This document shows positions 17,300 through 49,770 of a DNA stretch of 64,000 nucleotides, piece by piece. Origin of the DNA: Patescibacteria group bacterium (GTDB lineage Bacteria > Patescibacteriota > Patescibacteriia > SG8-24). How positions within the stretch are numbered: the first letter of the stretch is position 1; each line of letters begins with the position of its first letter. The notes under the pieces were generated by a model. It did no database searches. It was not told where the DNA came from and was given only the letters and a program-made list of their open reading frames with translations. The position numbers and the translations under genes are program-made. The stretch covers positions 6,591-70,590 of the forward strand of contig JBAYFM010000006.1 in NCBI GenBank assembly GCA_041667185.1, read 5' to 3'.

Positions 17300-17570
17300 C
17301 CCATTGCTTCACCGCTCCAAATACTCCAGCACTCTCAAACTCCCTGACTCCGTCTCTCCCTGACTCCAGTACTCCAGAACTCCAGCACTCTCCCAATTGT
17401 TAGTGACCTCGGTGTCAGACACCGAGGAGATGGAGAGTGCGGAAGTGGAGGAGTGGGGGAGACACGATAAAACTTCAGCCCTCCAGCACTCCCTGACTCC
17501 GTCTCTCCCGCACTCCCGCACTCCGCCACGTCGTTCGCGAACGACGTGGCTCCCGCACTCTCCCAAGTTG
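17300..17570. repeat. dispersed composite palindromic repeat element (longest copy, R3)
   Basis: Multiple ctccagcactc / gactccgtctctccctgactcc units, an internal hairpin cctcggtgtcagacaccgagg, and the core palindrome at 17528-17547. Confidence 0.75.
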
Positions 17571-17667: not shown

Positions 17668-18276
17668 ATGATGCGGCACGAGCTTGATTTGCATTCTGCG
17701 TTGATCGCGGGAGTGGTAATAGGGATACTTTGGCCGCTATTGACCTATGTCATCCTCGTGGGGACGAAGTTGATGTCGGAGCCGGAGACTGCCCGCCACG
17801 AAGCCGGCCACGTCGTCGCGCATTTCGTCGGTTTCGGCAAGGCGCCGTATCGCGTCGCTCTGACTACGTTCCAACTGAGCAACACGATGGGGCGCACGAC
17901 GAACTGCAGCGGCGACGACTGTCGCGGCAATATCAGCGTGGCCGAGCAGTGGCACACGCTTGTGCTGCTCTTAGCTGGCATGGCCGCCGCTTCGTCGCGC
18001 GATGGCGGCGACAACGACATCCGCACCTTCCGGGATGTTGTTTTAGTCCTCCTGGATGAACAGCAAAGCGGTCAGGATATCAGTCCGCCGTGGCCCAACG
18101 ATCTGTCCCTCCGACAGTTTGACTTCACGGACATCAGCGAAGAGGCGTGGCGTCGGACGACCGAAGTGGTCGCCCAGCATCGTCCTCAGATTGACGCCTT
18201 GGCCGAAGCGCTTCTGCGCCGCGGCAGCCTCGAGCACGAGGAGATCGAGGCTATCATCGACGCGACCGGCAAGTGA
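17668..18276 (+). CDS. stand-alone FtsH-like M41 peptidase-domain protein (TM anchor, no AAA module)
   Basis: TARHEAGHVVA (FtsH TAYHEAGHA), GGDNDI (FtsH GASNDI), and a C-terminal HRPQIDALAEALLRRGSLEHEEIEAII that matches the FtsH helical tail. Confidence 0.65.
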   Translation: MMRHELDLHSALIAGVVIGILWPLLTYVILVGTKLMSEPETARHEAGHVVAHFVGFGKAPYRVALTTFQLSNTMGRTTNCSGDDCRGNISVAEQWHTLVLLLAGMAAASSRDGGDNDIRTFRDVVLVLLDEQQSGQDISPPWPNDLSLRQFDFTDISEEAWRRTTEVVAQHRPQIDALAEALLRRGSLEHEEIEAIIDATGK

Positions 18277-18295
18277 GTCCGCCGTTCGTCAGCTT

Positions 18296-18326
18296 GGCCG
18301 CCCTGCAATACTGCGGGGCGGTTTTT
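18296..18326 (+). terminator. rho-independent terminator
   Basis: ccgccctgcaatactgcggggcgg plus T5. An adjacent ccggacccagtccgggtccgg hairpin with a flanking A-run terminates the minus-strand gene. Confidence 0.6.
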
Positions 18327-18422
18327 AATTTCCTTTTTTTTGGCGCAATAAAAAAACCGGACCCAGTCCGGGTCCGGCAGAAAAGAACTGCGAGCGGTTG
18401 CCGTTCGATCATCGCTGCTGCG

Positions 18423-18779
18423 TCAGCCGCTTTGGCCGCCGCTGCCGTTGCTGTAGCGTCGGTTGCCGCTTGGTCCGTCATTCTTGAGGACGAGCGGATC
18501 GGACGGATCGGCGGCGACGATCGGATCCGCTTTCGACTGGAGGTCCGACTGCCGCGGCAGACACGCCGCGATCTCGCAGAATTGACGGAGGGTTTCCGCG
18601 GCCGCCTGTTTTCGGGCCGCCATTTCTTCAAGACTGATGCCGAATTTCCGGCAATGGTCGACCTCCCAGTCCGTCAGGCCGAGGCGCAGTTGTTGGCGCC
18701 GCGCCTGTTTCTCATCGAGTTTGATGATGAGCAATCCGACGGCGGCGACCGCGATCAGCAAAAGGACTCCTGCTGCCAT
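18423..18779 (-). CDS. hypothetical small membrane-anchored protein
   Basis: Start trimmed to MAAGVLLLIAVAAVGLLIIKL; a TM helix then a ~90-aa soluble part. It lies between the two M41 paralogs. Confidence 0.45.
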   Translation of the reverse strand: MAAGVLLLIAVAAVGLLIIKLDEKQARRQQLRLGLTDWEVDHCRKFGISLEEMAARKQAAAETLRQFCEIAACLPRQSDLQSKADPIVAADPSDPLVLKNDGPSGNRRYSNGSGGQSG

Positions 18780-18993
18780 GTGTTCTCCTTCCGTTGCCAA
18801 GGAACGATGTTTTCCGCAGACACGAATGATAGTCTTGCCCCAGCCGTTGTCAATGGCTTTTGAAGGCTGAGAACCAGGCTCCGTCGGACCCGAAGCGCCT
18901 TGACAAGACGGCATTTTTATGCTTAATTGTCAGGTTGCATCCGGCACACATCCGGGCTGAATAAGCTCTTTGATAACCCAGAAGGAGACCTCG

Positions 18994-19599
18994 ATGACCA
19001 CGGATTTTTCGGAGTGTTGGTATTTCCCGATGATGTTTCAGATCACGATGATTTTCTGTGGTTATCTCATCGGCGTACGCCATGCCTTTCGCAACAGCGA
19101 ATTTAATGCCAGGCATGAAGTTGGCCATACGATCGTAGGGCTAGCCAGCACTTGTCTCCAGGTGCATTACACGAAGCTGACGTCGCCACTCCTTCCATTC
19201 AGTGAAGAAGGAGGACGTGTGGTTTTCGGCGGGATCGATCTCAGCGGTCTCAACATTAATTCCAGCGCGTCTCTTTGGGAGTGCGGTGCGCTGGTGTCAG
19301 CCGGCGAGGTTGCCGTGCAGAGCGACATGGGCTGTGAAAATGACCTGGAGAATTTCGGATCGGTAGCGCGAGAATTGGTGCGCCGGCAGTCGGCTGGCGA
19401 GGATATCCGTCCGCCCTGGCAGACCGATGCCGTACGCCGATCGTATTCGGCCGCTGACATCCGCGAATTTTGTCTGGCACGCGCCAGCGAACTGCTGCGG
19501 CAACAAGCCGGTCTGATCGAACCGCTCATCGAAGCCCTTCTTCGCCAGCGCCGTCTTGACTGCGCGGAGATCGACATCATCGTCGCCAGTCAGGGTTGA
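18994..19599 (+). CDS. stand-alone FtsH-like M41 peptidase-domain protein (paralog)
   Basis: ARHEVGHTIVG and a C-terminal LIEPLIEALLRQRRLDCAEIDIIVA. There is a TM helix before the HExxH, and the ATG at 18994 has an AAGGAG RBS. Confidence 0.6.
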   Translation: MTTDFSECWYFPMMFQITMIFCGYLIGVRHAFRNSEFNARHEVGHTIVGLASTCLQVHYTKLTSPLLPFSEEGGRVVFGGIDLSGLNINSSASLWECGALVSAGEVAVQSDMGCENDLENFGSVARELVRRQSAGEDIRPPWQTDAVRRSYSAADIREFCLARASELLRQQAGLIEPLIEALLRQRRLDCAEIDIIVASQG

Positions 19600-19622: not shown

Positions 19623-19662
19623 GACCGTTTCGGGCAAACACCCGAGCGGTCATTTTATTTTT
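19623..19662 (+). terminator. rho-independent terminator
   Basis: gaccgtttcggg-caaacac-cccgagcggtc hairpin then attttattttt. Confidence 0.55.
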
Positions 19663-25027: not shown

Positions 25028-25166
25028 CCGCTGACAACCGGATCAATCAACCGCCTCCCGCGCCAGCAGGGGGCGGTTTTAGCTTAATTAAGGCTAATCT
25101 TGATCTTCGGTGGTCGGGAGCTTCATTTTTGGCTCTCTTACTTGTATAATTTCTACCACGCCCATT

Positions 25167-26738
25167 ATGACCACCAAAAAAATCGCCGCCGCTAAAATTC
25201 CGCCCGTCGTTCTGGCTGTCATTGATGGCTGGGGCTTGGCACCGCCAGGCCGGGGTAACGCAATCTCGCTCTCCAAGACGCCGAACTTGGACGCTTTGTT
25301 CGGCAAATATCCGCATTCCCAGCTCATGGCGCACGGCCGTTACGTCGGCCTGCTGCCCGACCAGGAAGGCAACTCCGAGGCCGGCCACATGAACATCGGC
25401 GCCGGCCGGATCGTCCGGCAAGATATTTCTTATGTCACCGAGGCGATCAAGGATCGCACTTTTTTCAAGAATACCGCTTTCAAGGAGGTCCTGAAGCACG
25501 CCAAGAAATACGGCACCACGGTTCATCTCATGGGCTTGCTTTCGAACGGCAACAGCGCTCATGCCTGTCCGGAGCATCTTTACGCCCTGTTGGAATTTTG
25601 CCGCGACGAAGGCATTGACCGGGTGTTGCTGCATCTCTTCACCGACGGCCGCGATTCGCCGCCGTTCTCGGCCACGCGGCTCCTGCATGATCTCGAGAAA
25701 CGGCTGTATCCGAACCAGCAGATCGCCACGGTCATGGGCCGCTTTTACGCCATGGACCGCAACAAGCGCTGGCCGCGCATCGAGCTGGCTTATAATGCCA
25801 TCGTCTGCGGCGAAGGCCTCGTGGCGGCGAACGCCCACGCAGCCATCCTGCACGGCTACAATCGCGGCGAGTCCGACGAATTCATCTTGCCGACCGTGAT
25901 GGTGGGCGAGGACAAGCGGCCGATCGGCGGCGTCCACGACAATGACGTCGTCATTTTCTTCAACCTGCGCAGCGATCGCGCCCGCGAACTGACCAAGGCT
26001 TTCGTGCAGAAGGATTTCGAACAGCGTTCCGAAGGCGTCTTCAAGCGCAAGTGCGTGCCGCGCAACACCCGCTTCGCGGTGATGGCGGATTTCGGACCTG
26101 ATCTGCCGCATGTCTTCACCGCGTTCCCCAGCCGCGACATCCAGCTCGGCCTCACCGAGGTGCTCGCGCCAGTGCGGCAGTTCTACATCGCCGAATCCGA
26201 GAAATACGCGCACGTGACCTACTTCTTCAACGGCGGCTTCGCCGACCCGCGCGTCGGCGAGGAGCGGATGCGCGTGCCGTCGCCTTTCGTGGCCCATTAC
26301 GATTCCAAACCGGAGATGCGCGCCATGACCATCGCCGGCGAAGTGGCGCGCCGGGTGCGGTCCGGACTCCATGATTTTACCGTCTTGAATCTCGCCAATC
26401 TCGACATGGTCGGACACACCGGCAATCTGTCCGCGACCATCAAGGCTGTGGAGACGGTCGATCATTGCATCGGGATCATCGCCGAAGCGGTGCTGGAGAA
26501 AAAAGGCCACCTGATACTCACCGGCGATCACGGCAACGCCGAACTCATGATCAATCCCGAGACTGGCGAACTCATGACCGAACATACCGCGAATCCGGTG
26601 CCGTTCCTGCTCGTGAGCGATGTTTTCCGCAAGGCCAAGATCGGCGACGGGATGCTGGCCGATGTCGCGCCGACCATCCTTGATATCATGCATATCCCCA
26701 AACCGGTCGAAATGTCGGGATTTTCGCTTCTCCGCTGA
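25167..26738 (+). CDS. gpmI: 2,3-bisphosphoglycerate-independent phosphoglycerate mutase (copy 1)
   Basis: VIDGWG, GNSEAGHMNIGAGR (catalytic Ser), and a C-terminal GDHGNAE transferase domain. Confidence 0.9.
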   Translation: MTTKKIAAAKIPPVVLAVIDGWGLAPPGRGNAISLSKTPNLDALFGKYPHSQLMAHGRYVGLLPDQEGNSEAGHMNIGAGRIVRQDISYVTEAIKDRTFFKNTAFKEVLKHAKKYGTTVHLMGLLSNGNSAHACPEHLYALLEFCRDEGIDRVLLHLFTDGRDSPPFSATRLLHDLEKRLYPNQQIATVMGRFYAMDRNKRWPRIELAYNAIVCGEGLVAANAHAAILHGYNRGESDEFILPTVMVGEDKRPIGGVHDNDVVIFFNLRSDRARELTKAFVQKDFEQRSEGVFKRKCVPRNTRFAVMADFGPDLPHVFTAFPSRDIQLGLTEVLAPVRQFYIAESEKYAHVTYFFNGGFADPRVGEERMRVPSPFVAHYDSKPEMRAMTIAGEVARRVRSGLHDFTVLNLANLDMVGHTGNLSATIKAVETVDHCIGIIAEAVLEKKGHLILTGDHGNAELMINPETGELMTEHTANPVPFLLVSDVFRKAKIGDGMLADVAPTILDIMHIPKPVEMSGFSLLR

Positions 26739-26747
26739 CGCAATTTT

Positions 26748-28334
26748 ATGCCCGAAGGCGTACCGAAACCGGTCCTGCTGCTGGTGCTCGATGGTTGGGG
26801 CGTGGCCCCGGCCGGCGAAGGCAATCCCGTTGAGGCCGCCGAGACCCCGGTCTTCGACGACTTGGTCCGTACTTATCCGACCGCGACCGTGCGCGCTTCC
26901 GGCGAAGCCGTCGGTTTGTCTTGGGGCGAGATGGGCAACTCCGAGGTCGGCCATCTGACGATCGGCGCGGGCAAGATCTTCTACCAGTCGCTGCCGCGCA
27001 TCAACATGCAGATCCAGACCGGGGCGTTCTTCGAGAACGACGTCCTGATCAAGGCTGCCGAACACGCCAAGAAGAACAATTCAGCGTTCCATATCATGGG
27101 CATCCTGAGTCCGGGCAACGTCCACGGTTCGGACGAGCACATCTATGCGCTGCTCGAATTCGCCAAGCGTCAGGGACTCACCAAGGTCTTCGTGCACGCG
27201 TTCATGGACGGTCGTGATTCCATCTTCAACATGGGCATCGAGTTCATGCGCGCACTGCAGAAGAAGATGACCGAGCTCGGCGTCGGGCGCGTCGCCTCGA
27301 TGGGCGGCCGTTACTGGGGCATGGACCGCGATAACCGCTGGGACCGGGTCGAGAAAGCCTACAATGCCATCGTCGGCAAGGACGGCGTCGCCAAAAAATA
27401 CGAAGATCCGATCAAGGCCATCGAGGAATCTTACGCCGCCAAGGTCTACGACGAAGAGATCGAGCCGGCCATCTTCACCGAGGGTGGCCAGCCGGTCGGT
27501 CCCGTCAAAGACGGCGACGCTCTGGTCTTCGCGAATTATCGTCCGGACCGTTCGCGCCAGATCGCGCAGGCGTTCTGCATCCCGTCGTTCGCCAAGTTCC
27601 AGCGCGACTACCTGCCCAACCTGTATTTCGCCACGATGATGGAATACGAGAAGGGGACGCCGGCCAAGATCATGTATCCGCCGGAGAACATCGACACCTG
27701 TCTCGCCAAGATCGTCTCGGAAGCCGGCTTGAAGCAGCTGCATATCGCCGAGACGGAAAAATACGCGCACGTCACGTTCTTCATGAACGGCATGCGCGAG
27801 GAGCCGTATCCGGGCGAGGATCGCGTGATCATCCCGTCGCCGCGCGTCTCGTCCTATGATCAGGCACCGGCCATGTCCACGCCAAAGATCGCCGAGCGCA
27901 TCGTCAAGGAATTTGAGGAGAAGAAATACGACCTGATCGTCTGTAATTTCGCGAACGCCGACATGGTCGGGCACACTGGTAAGTTCGAAGCCACCAAACA
28001 GGGCTGCGAGGTCATCGATCAGTGCTTGGGGACGATCGTGAACGCGGCGCTGCAGCACGGCGGCGCGATCGTGATCACGGCCGACCACGGCAACGGCGAG
28101 GAGGTCATCAACCTGCAGACCGGCGAGCTCGACAAAGAGCACAGCACCAATCCCGTGCCGTTCATCGTCGTCGCCGAGAGTTTCCGCGGCCAGGCGTCGC
28201 CGTCGGGCGAGGTGATCGGCGGCGATCTTTCGATCATGCCGCCGGTCGGCATGTTGGCCGATGCGGCGCCGACGGTCCTGAAACTGCTGGGCGTGCCGCA
28301 ACCGAAGGAATTGACCGGCTCGCCGCTCATTTAG
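26748..28334 (+). CDS. gpmI: 2,3-bisphosphoglycerate-independent phosphoglycerate mutase (tandem paralog, copy 2)
   Basis: VLDGWG, GNSEVGHLTIGAGK, ADHGNGE. Same architecture as copy 1, ~40% identity. Confidence 0.88.
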   Translation: MPEGVPKPVLLLVLDGWGVAPAGEGNPVEAAETPVFDDLVRTYPTATVRASGEAVGLSWGEMGNSEVGHLTIGAGKIFYQSLPRINMQIQTGAFFENDVLIKAAEHAKKNNSAFHIMGILSPGNVHGSDEHIYALLEFAKRQGLTKVFVHAFMDGRDSIFNMGIEFMRALQKKMTELGVGRVASMGGRYWGMDRDNRWDRVEKAYNAIVGKDGVAKKYEDPIKAIEESYAAKVYDEEIEPAIFTEGGQPVGPVKDGDALVFANYRPDRSRQIAQAFCIPSFAKFQRDYLPNLYFATMMEYEKGTPAKIMYPPENIDTCLAKIVSEAGLKQLHIAETEKYAHVTFFMNGMREEPYPGEDRVIIPSPRVSSYDQAPAMSTPKIAERIVKEFEEKKYDLIVCNFANADMVGHTGKFEATKQGCEVIDQCLGTIVNAALQHGGAIVITADHGNGEEVINLQTGELDKEHSTNPVPFIVVAESFRGQASPSGEVIGGDLSIMPPVGMLADAAPTVLKLLGVPQPKELTGSPLI

Positions 28335-28418
28335 AGTTGGGGAGTCAGGGAGAGGCGAAGCGGGGGAGATCGAGTCTCTCCCTGACCCCGTCTCTCCCTG
28401 ACTCCGTCTCTCGCATTT
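28335..28418. repeat. dispersed repeat element (copy R4)
   Basis: ggggagtcagggagag...ctctccctgaccccgtctctccctgactccgtctctc. Confidence 0.7.
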
Positions 28419-34261: not shown

Positions 34262-34390
34262 GTAGCGGAGAGTGGGGGAGACGAAGTGTTGAAGTACTGG
34301 AGTACTGAAGTACGGAAGCTTAACCTCAAACCTCCAGCACTCCCGCACTTCAGCACTTCAGTACTCCTGCATTTCCTCACCCCCCCCATC
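34262..34390. repeat. dispersed repeat element (copy R5)
   Basis: ggagagtggggg...cctccagcactcccgcacttcagcacttcagtactcc, followed by the cassette terminator/leader. Confidence 0.65.
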
Positions 34391-35099: not shown

Positions 35100-35150
35100 G
35101 TTTTAGCGGAGAGGGATCAGAACTCCCACACTCCCACACTCTCCGTCTTC
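35100..35150. repeat. dispersed repeat fragment (copy R6)
   Basis: agcggagagggatcagaactcccacactcccacactctccgtcttc. Confidence 0.5.
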
Positions 35151-35799: not shown

Positions 35800-35990
35800 T
35801 TTTTTCGCCATTTTGAGGTGAAGAGACGGAGTCAGGGAGAGACGGAGTTGGGGAGATACGAAGATACGGAGTCACGTCGTTCGCGAACGACGTGACGGAG
35901 CCATATCGCTCACAAGCGACGCGACTCCGTCTCTCTGTTACTTCCTGACTCCGTCTCTCCCGCACTCCTGCACTCCCATACTTTCCACTA
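35800..35990. repeat. dispersed composite palindromic repeat element (copy R7)
   Basis: gagacggagtcagggagagacggag ... core palindrome 35874-35893 ... gactccgtctct ... cctgactccgtctctcc. Confidence 0.75.
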
Positions 35991-44524: not shown

Positions 44525-44640
44525 TCCTTCAATTCTTTACTCTCCCAAACTCTGTCACGCCGTTCGAGAGCGACATATCTCCGTCTCTCCCGCACTCCTG
44601 CACTCCAGCACTCCGTCACTTCTTAATCCAATCTTATTTT
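44525..44640. repeat. dispersed repeat element (copy R9, degenerate core ACGCCGTTCGAGAGCGACAT)
   Basis: ...atctccgtctctcccgcactcctgcactccagcactccgtcac... Confidence 0.65.
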
Positions 44641-45239: not shown

Positions 45240-45345
45240 TTTTTTAGAAGTGACGGAGTCAGGAAGTGTAGGAGAGACGGAGTCGTTGAGAGATTCTCCC
45301 GAACTCCGTCTCTCCCTGACTTCGTCTCTCACAAAAAACCCCGCA
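45240..45345. repeat. dispersed repeat element (copy R10)
   Basis: gacggagtcaggaagtgtaggagagacggagtc...gaactccgtctctccctgacttcgtctctc: inverted arms. Confidence 0.7.
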
Positions 45346-49639: not shown

Positions 49640-49770
49640 TTCGTTGGGCTGTCTTTTTTTTGTGGATGTGGAGAGTGGGGTGGGAGTGCTGGAGTGCTGG
49701 AGTGCTGGAGTGCTGGAGTGCTGGAGTGCTCTCATACTCCGTCTCTCCCACACTTCCAAACTCCCACACC
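49640..49770. repeat. dispersed repeat element (copy R11) containing a (GGAGTGCT)5 octanucleotide microsatellite
   Basis: gtggagagtggggtgggagtgctggagtgctggagtgctggagtgctggagtgctctcatactccgtctctccc. Confidence 0.75.

Follow-up and report, generated by a model that had tools for sequence, protein, structure and literature searches.

Tandem genes for AAA-less M41-type zinc peptidases in a Patescibacteria genome

We analysed a 64-kb stretch of DNA, hereafter the window, from a Patescibacteria metagenome-assembled genome (MAG; GenBank assembly GCA_041667185.1, contig JBAYFM010000006.1, positions 6,591 to 70,590 of the forward strand), and found that two of its open reading frames (ORFs), ORF1 and ORF2, are intact paralogues whose products, each of about 200 amino acids (aa), very probably belong to the M41 (FtsH-type) zinc peptidases and carry no AAA+ module. 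They lie on the same strand, on either side of an oppositely oriented gene for a 118-aa membrane protein, and all three are entered in GenBank as “hypothetical protein”, with no functional annotation. The two paralogues are part of a small, unannotated family of AAA-less M41 peptidases found mainly in Patescibacteria-like genomes. On balance, their sequences and structural models favour the view that they are diverged tandem paralogues of this family which act as ATP-independent, membrane-proximal zinc peptidases, possibly in oligomeric form.

Assignment to the M41 peptidases

A sequence-only reading of this DNA had proposed that the two genes code for paralogous, stand-alone, membrane-tethered M41 proteins, and the comparisons agree with it. 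The two products are 34% identical to each other over 179 aa (BLASTP, E = 2e-23). Searched singly against Pfam, both gave Peptidase_M41 as the only family up to an E-value of 10, with 25.9 bits (E = 1e-5) for ORF1 and 19.3 bits (E = 1e-3) for ORF2, and ORF1 alone retrieved T. maritima FtsH from PDB (E = 0.006), its HEAGH motif being placed on HEAGH and GGDNDI on GAANDI, with the C-terminal helices matched as well. At the level of the family, all 12 members matched Pfam M41 at E < 0.01 (best 2.5e-14), and several of the relatives exceeded the gathering cut-off of this model (PF01434, 29.9 bits). The Pfam check that had been suggested from the sequence is therefore significant for the family and its profile, whereas the single ORFs stay under the cut-off. 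Comparison of the family with an alignment of FtsH protease domains by hhalign scored 99.7% (E = 8.8e-26, 163 columns), and the family profile retrieved 18 sequences from PDB, all of them FtsH, AFG3L2, YME1 or FtsHi, with E-values from 3.1e-22 to 1e-15 over profile positions 32-201. AlphaFold2 (AF2) models, built on the family alignment, reached a mean predicted local distance difference test score (pLDDT) of 87.1 for ORF1 and 86.8 for ORF2, with a predicted template modelling (TM) score (pTM) of 0.80, and the best 50 Foldseek matches of each model in PDB were all M41 protease domains (FtsH, YME1, AFG3L2 and FtsHi). We regard the M41 assignment as secure because of these hhalign, profile, AF2 and Foldseek results, the statistics of which are far beyond chance, unlike those of HExxH alone, a motif common enough to occur nine times in window ORFs of at least 80 aa.

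Assignment to M78 (ImmA/IrrE), M50 (site-2 protease), M48 (HtpX) or the metzincins was ruled out by the Pfam and fold searches; no M78, M50 or M48 fold was among the top PDB matches, and weak M50B matches, seen in three relatives only, reflect the membrane helix together with HExxH.

A predicted zinc site behind a single membrane helix

As had been noted from the sequence, each protein has an N-terminal hydrophobic helix followed directly by HE(A/V)GH, which in both ORFs starts exactly 12 residues past the helix; AF2 models membrane helix and active-site helix without a break in each protein, and in ORF1 a single helix of residues 7-55 runs into the HEAGH helix. The claim that the rest of the domain aligns to FtsH also holds, with GGDNDI of ORF1 and GCENDL of ORF2 falling on SGAANDI of T. 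maritima FtsH and the C-terminal helical tail on the corresponding part of the Pfam model (Table 1). In the 12-member family alignment, the H, E, G and H of the motif are invariant together with one Gly, one Trp and one Asp, and the Pro-Trp of a DIxPPW motif is nearly so. This Asp is D117 in both ORFs (counted in ORF1 from the ATG at 17668); it belongs to an NDI/L motif located about 70-77 residues after HExxH and is present in 12 of the 12 family members, so that the expected third zinc ligand is conserved in each copy. The zinc ligands in the T. maritima FtsH structure, described by Bieniossek et al. in 2006, are reportedly H423, H427 and D500. We take the Asp aligned with D117 to be D500, the third ligand, and index arithmetic on the alignment of ORF1 with T. 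maritima FtsH is consistent with this. The predicted zinc-site residues, H-E-x-x-H and Asp117, are intact in both ORFs.

Absence of the AAA+ module

The statement that no Walker A/B ATPase is encoded at the locus was confirmed, and for an FtsH-type AAA module it can be extended to the entire window. A pattern scan revealed no Walker A motif in or near ORF1 and ORF2, and a hidden Markov model (HMM) that represents the AAA modules of 12 FtsH proteins and was applied, with all filters off, to stop-to-stop fragments of at least 15 aa found nothing in the six frames of the 64 kb, the best score being 4 bits (E = 1.9) far from the locus. The FtsH equivalog model of NCBIfam, TIGR01241, gave 11.2 bits against a cut-off of 600. 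There is no Pfam match to the FtsH_ext domain, and ORF1 and ORF2 each have a single helix of about 19-22 residues, not two.

These results bear on the possibility that ORF1 and ORF2 are pseudogenized pieces of a decayed ftsH, for which their general likeness to the C-terminal half of FtsH only could be cited. Both frames are intact, with ribosome-binding sites and N-terminal membrane helices of their own; no AAA remnant, frameshifted or otherwise, is found upstream or in any frame, and an AAA module would not fit into the spaces in front of the two genes, which measure 455 nt for ORF1 and 717 nt for ORF2 (the latter mostly occupied by the minus-strand gene). Moreover, the architecture has been kept at 20-36% identity over many lineages with invariant catalytic residues, and profile searches support the M41 likeness of the whole family. 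We consider this explanation hardly credible and effectively refuted.

A family of AAA-less relatives

An exhaustive HMMER search of 1.84 billion representative proteins with a two-sequence profile of ORF1 and ORF2 yielded 42 matches at E < 1e-3, among them canonical FtsH and about a dozen proteins of approximately 200 aa with the ORF1/ORF2 layout (proteins and loci are cited below by working numbers beginning with P and L, respectively, with coordinates of the locus). The family shares the signature H-E-x-G-H...G...W...D...PPW, and pairwise identity within it is 20-36%. In a neighbour-joining tree all of the family but P0016 stands apart from the FtsH protease domains; ORF1 is nearest to ORF2 and ORF2 to ORF1, and the pair is placed outside two loose subgroups. 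Other searches added little: word-indexed homologue searches, which are nearly blind to the family, returned only self-matches for ORF1 and the 118-aa protein and seven matches for the family profile; a scan of genome contigs for the pattern AxHEAGH, which FtsH also contains, gave only canonical FtsH genes among the matches listed; and a scan of JGI metagenomes for HE[AV]GH-gap-[DN][IV]xP[PS]W gave 14 loci, comprising one known true member, three FtsH genes and otherwise chance matches. Literature searches found no description of AAA-less or stand-alone M41 proteins.

Tandem pairs occur at three loci, namely in the window, at L025-27 (GCA_023246225.1; 240 and 215 aa, side by side) and at L024, which has two adjacent copies. 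Within the L025 pair, as within the window pair, the two copies are closest to one another, suggesting independent duplications. In L025 (3609-7503; contig JAHFIV010000002.1) the tandem genes directly follow a canonical ftsH on the same strand, and in L023 (1-1908; GCA_964487195.1) ftsH is likewise followed on the same strand by one AAA-less M41 gene, coding for 219 aa; the upstream ORF of L023 is the C-terminal part of FtsH, with the second homology region (SRH), HECGH and GASND. These two loci share downstream synteny (M23 peptidase, gltX and wecG), and direct adjacency to ftsH is thus seen in one lineage (L023 and L025-27). Elsewhere, the family genes have unremarkable neighbours with housekeeping or envelope roles, namely recA, a RodZ-like gene and genes for FtsK, LytR-CpsA-Psr, signal peptidase I, M23 peptidase and tRNA synthetases. 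Inspection of neighbourhoods in related genomes, which had been recommended from the sequence, therefore brought out the tandem pairs and, in the one lineage, ftsH, and no other shared partner.

The predicted topologies, which are calls from simple heuristics and not the output of a predictor, differ among members. PROSITE-type lipoprotein signals are present in P0034 (L003, 8001-8612), P0013/P0053 (L030, 7001-7678) and the first copy of L024 (2-595); in P0034, P0053 and L024 they read AAFGC, ATVGC and VVVGC and are located 10-27 residues before HExxH, which would place an FtsH-type protease domain outside the cytoplasm in these members. Three further members have N-in signal-anchor features, also implying an exported domain. 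A positively charged stretch after the helix implies a cytoplasmic domain in P0005, P0010 and ORF2, the last with a flanking charge of +3 after the helix by the positive-inside heuristic, and ORF1 is ambiguous. No convincing membrane helix was seen in P0004, P0016 or the L025 pair.

The gene for P0005 (6001-6645 of L019, a 68.8-kb contig from Logan SRR24472968) lies among small unknown genes, a gene for a MazG-like pyrophosphatase (phrog_229, E = 4e-24), a ThyX-like gene and a glutamine synthetase gene; this contig is probably a phage genome.

Comparison with known systems

The protease domains of FtsH and of the mitochondrial AAA proteases (M41, PF01434; 2CE7 and 3KDS) have the same fold as ORF1 and ORF2 (Foldseek E = 1.8e-7, query-normalised TM score about 0.6) and share with them HExxH, the Asp aligned with the third ligand, the Gly of the beta-hairpin and the C-terminal helices. 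Identity to the FtsH domains is only about 22%, and ORF1 and ORF2 have their own DIxPPW motif and no Glu corresponding to that of the FtsH AAEE motif. They differ further from FtsH in having neither the AAA+ module nor the FtsH_ext periplasmic domain, and in possessing one membrane helix instead of two; only 12 residues separate this helix from HExxH, which would put the active site at the membrane and not under an ATPase ring. The relatives from Patescibacteria-like contigs (P0004-P0010, P0013, P0019, P0034, and the second copies of L024 and L025) are alike in size, about 200 aa, in their N-terminal anchor or signal and in the HE(A/T)GH, G, W, D and PPW positions, but they are only 20-28% identical to the window pair, and some are lipoproteins, some are without a helix and some lie beside ftsH.

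Stand-alone M41 folds with no room for an AAA module are also known from phage proteins annotated as “Peptidase M41 domain-containing protein”, A0A6J5RJ76 (214 aa, from an uncultured Caudovirales phage) and I4AZJ7 (230 aa), recovered by Foldseek in BFVD (E = 3.6e-6, TMq 0.62, TMt 0.59). They differ from ORF1 and ORF2 in their viral origin and in an identity of only 16-18%, and a search of phage records gave no sequence-level match to the window proteins. The architecture had been called unusual, and so it is; it is not unique, given the distant family in Patescibacteria-like contigs and these M41-only phage proteins in UniProt and BFVD. Another type of viral protein is represented at L029 (4450-6666 of the 136.9-kb IMGVR_UViG_3300010162_000393), where a 738-aa phage protein combines an unusual N-terminal P-loop region (GLTGCGKT) with M41 (HEAGH and GASNDL), a divergent viral FtsH-like protease.

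The halves of FtsH are likewise uncoupled in the chloroplast FtsHi pseudo-proteases, whose structures (8xks, 8xku and 8xqw) rank with the top fold matches and which keep the AAA motor and have lost HExxH (PMC9020784). The uncoupling in ORF1 and ORF2 is the opposite one, the motor being gone and the zinc site kept. HtpX of E. coli (M48) is a membrane-bound, ATP-independent zinc endopeptidase with an HExxH motif, which works alongside FtsH in membrane-protein quality control. Its likeness to ORF1 and ORF2 would be one of role only, as its fold and family are unrelated and they have no M48 match in Pfam.

Genomic setting and gene features

The genes are arranged in the order prfA and rpmE (both on the minus strand), rpsB, tsf, ORF1, the 118-aa gene, ORF2, gap, a metallophosphoesterase gene, pgk, a SIMPL protein gene, eno and two genes for cofactor-independent phosphoglycerate mutase (iPGM). 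The features of the three genes are collected in Table 1.

Table 1. Features of ORF1, ORF2 and the 118-aa gene, in window coordinates
Feature	Position	Strand	Basis
ORF1, AAA-less M41-type zinc peptidase, 202 aa	17668..18276	+	NCBI WCT10_02935 / MFA6603774.1; Pfam M41 and AF2/Foldseek
ORF1 N-terminal hydrophobic (membrane) helix, residues 13-31	17704..17760	+	mean Kyte-Doolittle hydropathy 2.45 over 19 residues
ORF1 HEAGH (H44, E45, H48)	17797..17811	+	motif scan; aligned with HEAGH of T. maritima FtsH; family-invariant
ORF1 Asp117 in GGDNDI, predicted third zinc ligand	18016..18018	+	aligned with Asp of FtsH AANDI (3kds/2ce7)
ORF1 DISPPW, family-specific motif, P and W nearly invariant	18076..18093	+	family alignment; opposite the FtsH GMSxxLGP.W region
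ORF1 C-terminal helical region	18127..18255	+	corresponds to Pfam M41 positions 149-191
Terminator-like hairpin after ORF1	18296..18323	+	12-bp stem, then T-run
Terminator-like hairpin after 118-aa gene	18356..18378	-	hairpin scan
118-aa orphan single-pass membrane protein	18423..18779	-	NCBI WCT10_02940; ORF and GGAG; helix encoded at 18723-18776
Sigma-70-like promoter of 118-aa gene, TTGACA-16-TATCAT	18826..18853	-	agrees with the consensus at 11 of 12 positions
ORF2, second AAA-less M41-type zinc peptidase, 201 aa	18994..19599	+	NCBI WCT10_02945 / MFA6603776.1
ORF2 N-terminal hydrophobic helix, residues 10-28	19021..19077	+	hydropathy
ORF2 HEVGH, predicted zinc-binding/catalytic motif	19114..19128	+	motif scan, alignment
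ORF2 Asp117 in GCENDL, predicted third zinc ligand	19342..19344	+	invariant alignment column
ORF2 DIRPPW family motif	19402..19419	+	alignment; also repeat family D4
Terminator-like hairpin after ORF2	19629..19646	+	hairpin scan

The NCBI version of ORF1 (MFA6603774.1) starts at an internal TTG and is 178 aa long, with most of the membrane helix lost. We favour the form of 201-202 aa, because a ribosome-binding site (GGAG, 8 nt upstream) precedes the ATG and the N-terminal helix is conserved in relatives. For ORF2, the longest frame begins at a TTG at 18970, and gene callers use the ATG at 18994, which has a GGAG upstream. ORF1, the 118-aa gene and ORF2 all show a G+C content that is highest at third and lowest at second codon positions (GC3 > GC1 > GC2), and this, together with the ribosome-binding sites, promoter and terminators, indicates that they are real coding genes; the presence of the window proteins in independent assemblies also counts toward real, independent genes. 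Their GC3 values (0.75 for ORF1, 0.73 for the 118-aa gene and 0.62 for ORF2) are lower than the 0.80-0.87 of prfA, rpsB, tsf, gap, pgk and eno, which could mean either low expression or that a three-gene block was inserted between tsf and gap.

The gene between the paralogues does code for a single-pass membrane protein on the opposite strand, as had been read from the sequence: an ORF with an N-terminal helix, a ribosome-binding site, a promoter and a terminator are all in place, and behind the helix come a helical segment and a low-complexity tail. This protein lends little to the suggestion of a membrane-proteolysis module. It had no family match in Pfam, NCBIfam, PHROGs or PADLOC, a search of 5.8 billion proteins for homologues returned it alone, and its gene is missing at every other family locus. 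We therefore treat it as a lineage-specific orphan lying by chance between the paralogues and not as a conserved partner, probably no core part of any module and at most a local substrate or regulator.

Several other features of the window may be mentioned. Repeats with an 8-nt period at 17320-17565, upstream of ORF1, comprise two blocks and an inverted copy (17426-17464), which fill the spacer between tsf and ORF1 and could fold into long hairpins. Short arrays of the same period are also found at 1183-1218, 28374-28412, 34332-34371, 35122-35141, 35822-35860, 35923-35976, 44579-44620, 45295-45330 and 49683-49730; ACTCCAGC, CTCCGTCT and CTCCCGCA are among the units, and at 49683-49730 there are six perfect copies of the reverse complement GGAGTGCT. 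Together they look like a genome-specific dispersed repeat family. The two iPGM genes, with Metalloenzyme and iPGM_N domains, are adjacent and directly follow eno at about 25100-28200 (L001, 17497-19068 and 19078 onward). A 247-aa stop-to-stop ORF on the plus strand around position 2795 contains HELGHMLGLSH (HExxHxxGxxH), suggesting a metzincin-type metalloprotease unrelated to the M41 genes.

Proposed mode of action and its alternatives

In both ORF1 and ORF2, which we favour as ATP-independent peptidases at the membrane, a complete M41 domain has its HExxH helix joined, over 12 residues, to a single membrane helix, and a spacing this short would keep the active site close to the membrane surface, probably within about 2 nm of it. 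As there is no ATPase, ATP-driven unfolding and translocation would be absent and endopeptidase action would be independent of ATP; as there is no unfoldase, only accessible, unstructured segments would be cut. Likely substrates would be unstructured or membrane-proximal segments, such as the tails and loops of membrane proteins, or peptides. Isolated protease domains of FtsH form hexamers arranged as a disk, and it is the protease domain that selects the partner protomer (PMC9020784). For this reason ORF1 and ORF2 probably oligomerise as well, and a hetero-oligomer of the two paralogues may be envisaged, comparable to type A and type B FtsH, with which the recurrent tandem pairs are compatible. 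In the FtsH protease disk (2CE7/2DHR), the N-terminal face is the catalytic face and is directed towards the AAA ring and the membrane, so a ring of ORF1/ORF2-type proteins would point its active sites at the membrane. Their role could be that of a helper in membrane-protein quality control, which may cooperate with genuine FtsH, and the adjacency to ftsH in one lineage fits such a role. An HtpX-like, ATP-independent helper mechanism specifically is drawn by analogy, and we hold it as possible and clearly less assured than the peptidase reading itself. More tentative still, and on the whole rather unlikely, is a joint reading that spans all members, in which a Patescibacteria-centred family would represent the FtsH protease ring freed from its ATPase and acting without ATP at the membrane surface, with a cytoplasmic subfamily, sometimes encoded beside ftsH, and an exported lipoprotein subfamily working outside the cell, where there is no ATP, and with tandem paralogues assembling into hetero-oligomeric rings that face the membrane.

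Several points weigh against the proposal that the pair are active, ATP-independent membrane peptidases. The single-sequence Pfam scores of both ORFs are under the gathering cut-off, as stated above. Most relatives have kept the Glu of the AAEE motif of FtsH, but ORF1 and ORF2 have not, and its loss could lower their activity. The topologies are heuristic and mixed across members, so that one mechanism may not fit all. The neighbourhoods offer no conserved partner beyond the tandem paralogues and, in a single lineage, ftsH; no ftsH is present inside the 64-kb window, and the link to FtsH comes from that one other lineage only.

Among the alternatives, the one closest to the proposed helper role is that these proteins are accessory or regulatory subunits of FtsH, which would dock onto, intercalate into or cap its protease ring and thereby change substrate choice or activity. 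The position of the M41-only genes in two related genomes (L023 and L025-27), next to ftsH on its downstream side and on its strand, speaks for it, as does the part played by the protease domain in hexamerisation and partner selection within FtsH heterocomplexes (PMC9020784), and the L025 pair, lacking a convincing membrane helix, could be soluble and cytoplasmic. Yet most other relatives, like the window pair, are not beside ftsH, the catalytic residues are invariant although a pure adaptor would not need them, and the three relatives with lipoprotein signals would sit across the membrane from the FtsH protease ring; we judge it improbable. Still less credence is given to two further explanations, of about equal standing. 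One is that ORF1 and ORF2 are site-specific regulatory proteases, which would cleave the 118-aa protein or another anchored regulator and release or destroy its cytoplasmic part, in the manner known for anti-sigma factors. The 118-aa gene does lie between the paralogues, divergent from ORF2 and with a strong promoter of its own, and its product, with a membrane helix, then a helical segment and a probably disordered tail, would be a plausible target of a protease that lacks an unfoldase; but a protein that has no homologues among the 5.8 billion searched and is absent from every other family locus cannot be a conserved substrate, and Pfam and NCBIfam detect no sigma factor or regulator domain in it.

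The other is that the three genes form a horizontally acquired phage or mobile cassette between tsf and gap, with a role in phage-host or host-symbiont conflict. The lower GC3 of all three, the transcription signals that each of them has, the occurrence of P0005 on the probable phage contig with its MazG-like and ThyX genes, and the stand-alone M41 proteins A0A6J5RJ76 and I4AZJ7 from uncultured phages would all agree with such an origin. However, lower GC3 may just mean low expression, no integrase, transposase or tRNA gene is found near the locus, and most relatives are situated among chromosomal housekeeping genes. Neither PADLOC (E <= 1) nor PHROG gave a match for ORF1, ORF2 or the 118-aa protein, tblastn found none in 50,697 phage records, and the IMG/VR scan yielded only one phage protein, the AAA-containing one of 738 aa (AAA and M41) described above. 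The reading of ORF1 and ORF2 as ATP-independent, membrane-proximal peptidases is the one that we retain.

Implications

In the usual account, FtsH-type (M41) proteolysis cannot be separated from the AAA+ motor: the active sites are buried, and only ATP-driven translocation gives access to them. The present family keeps a complete and apparently catalytic M41 domain in which the motor seems to have been swapped for a membrane anchor or, in some members, for a lipoprotein signal, and it raises the questions of how substrates gain access without a motor and whether proteolysis by an M41 ring is possible without ATP. The practical impact will be modest until activity is shown. Stand-alone M41 domains are already in databases, function is inferred, and no conserved partner or phenotype is in sight. 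For the Patescibacteria, which have reduced genomes and an envelope biology that is largely unknown, a fold and a probable activity can now be given to proteins so far listed as hypothetical, and should the association with ftsH in one lineage prove functional, these proteins could form a new class of FtsH partner.

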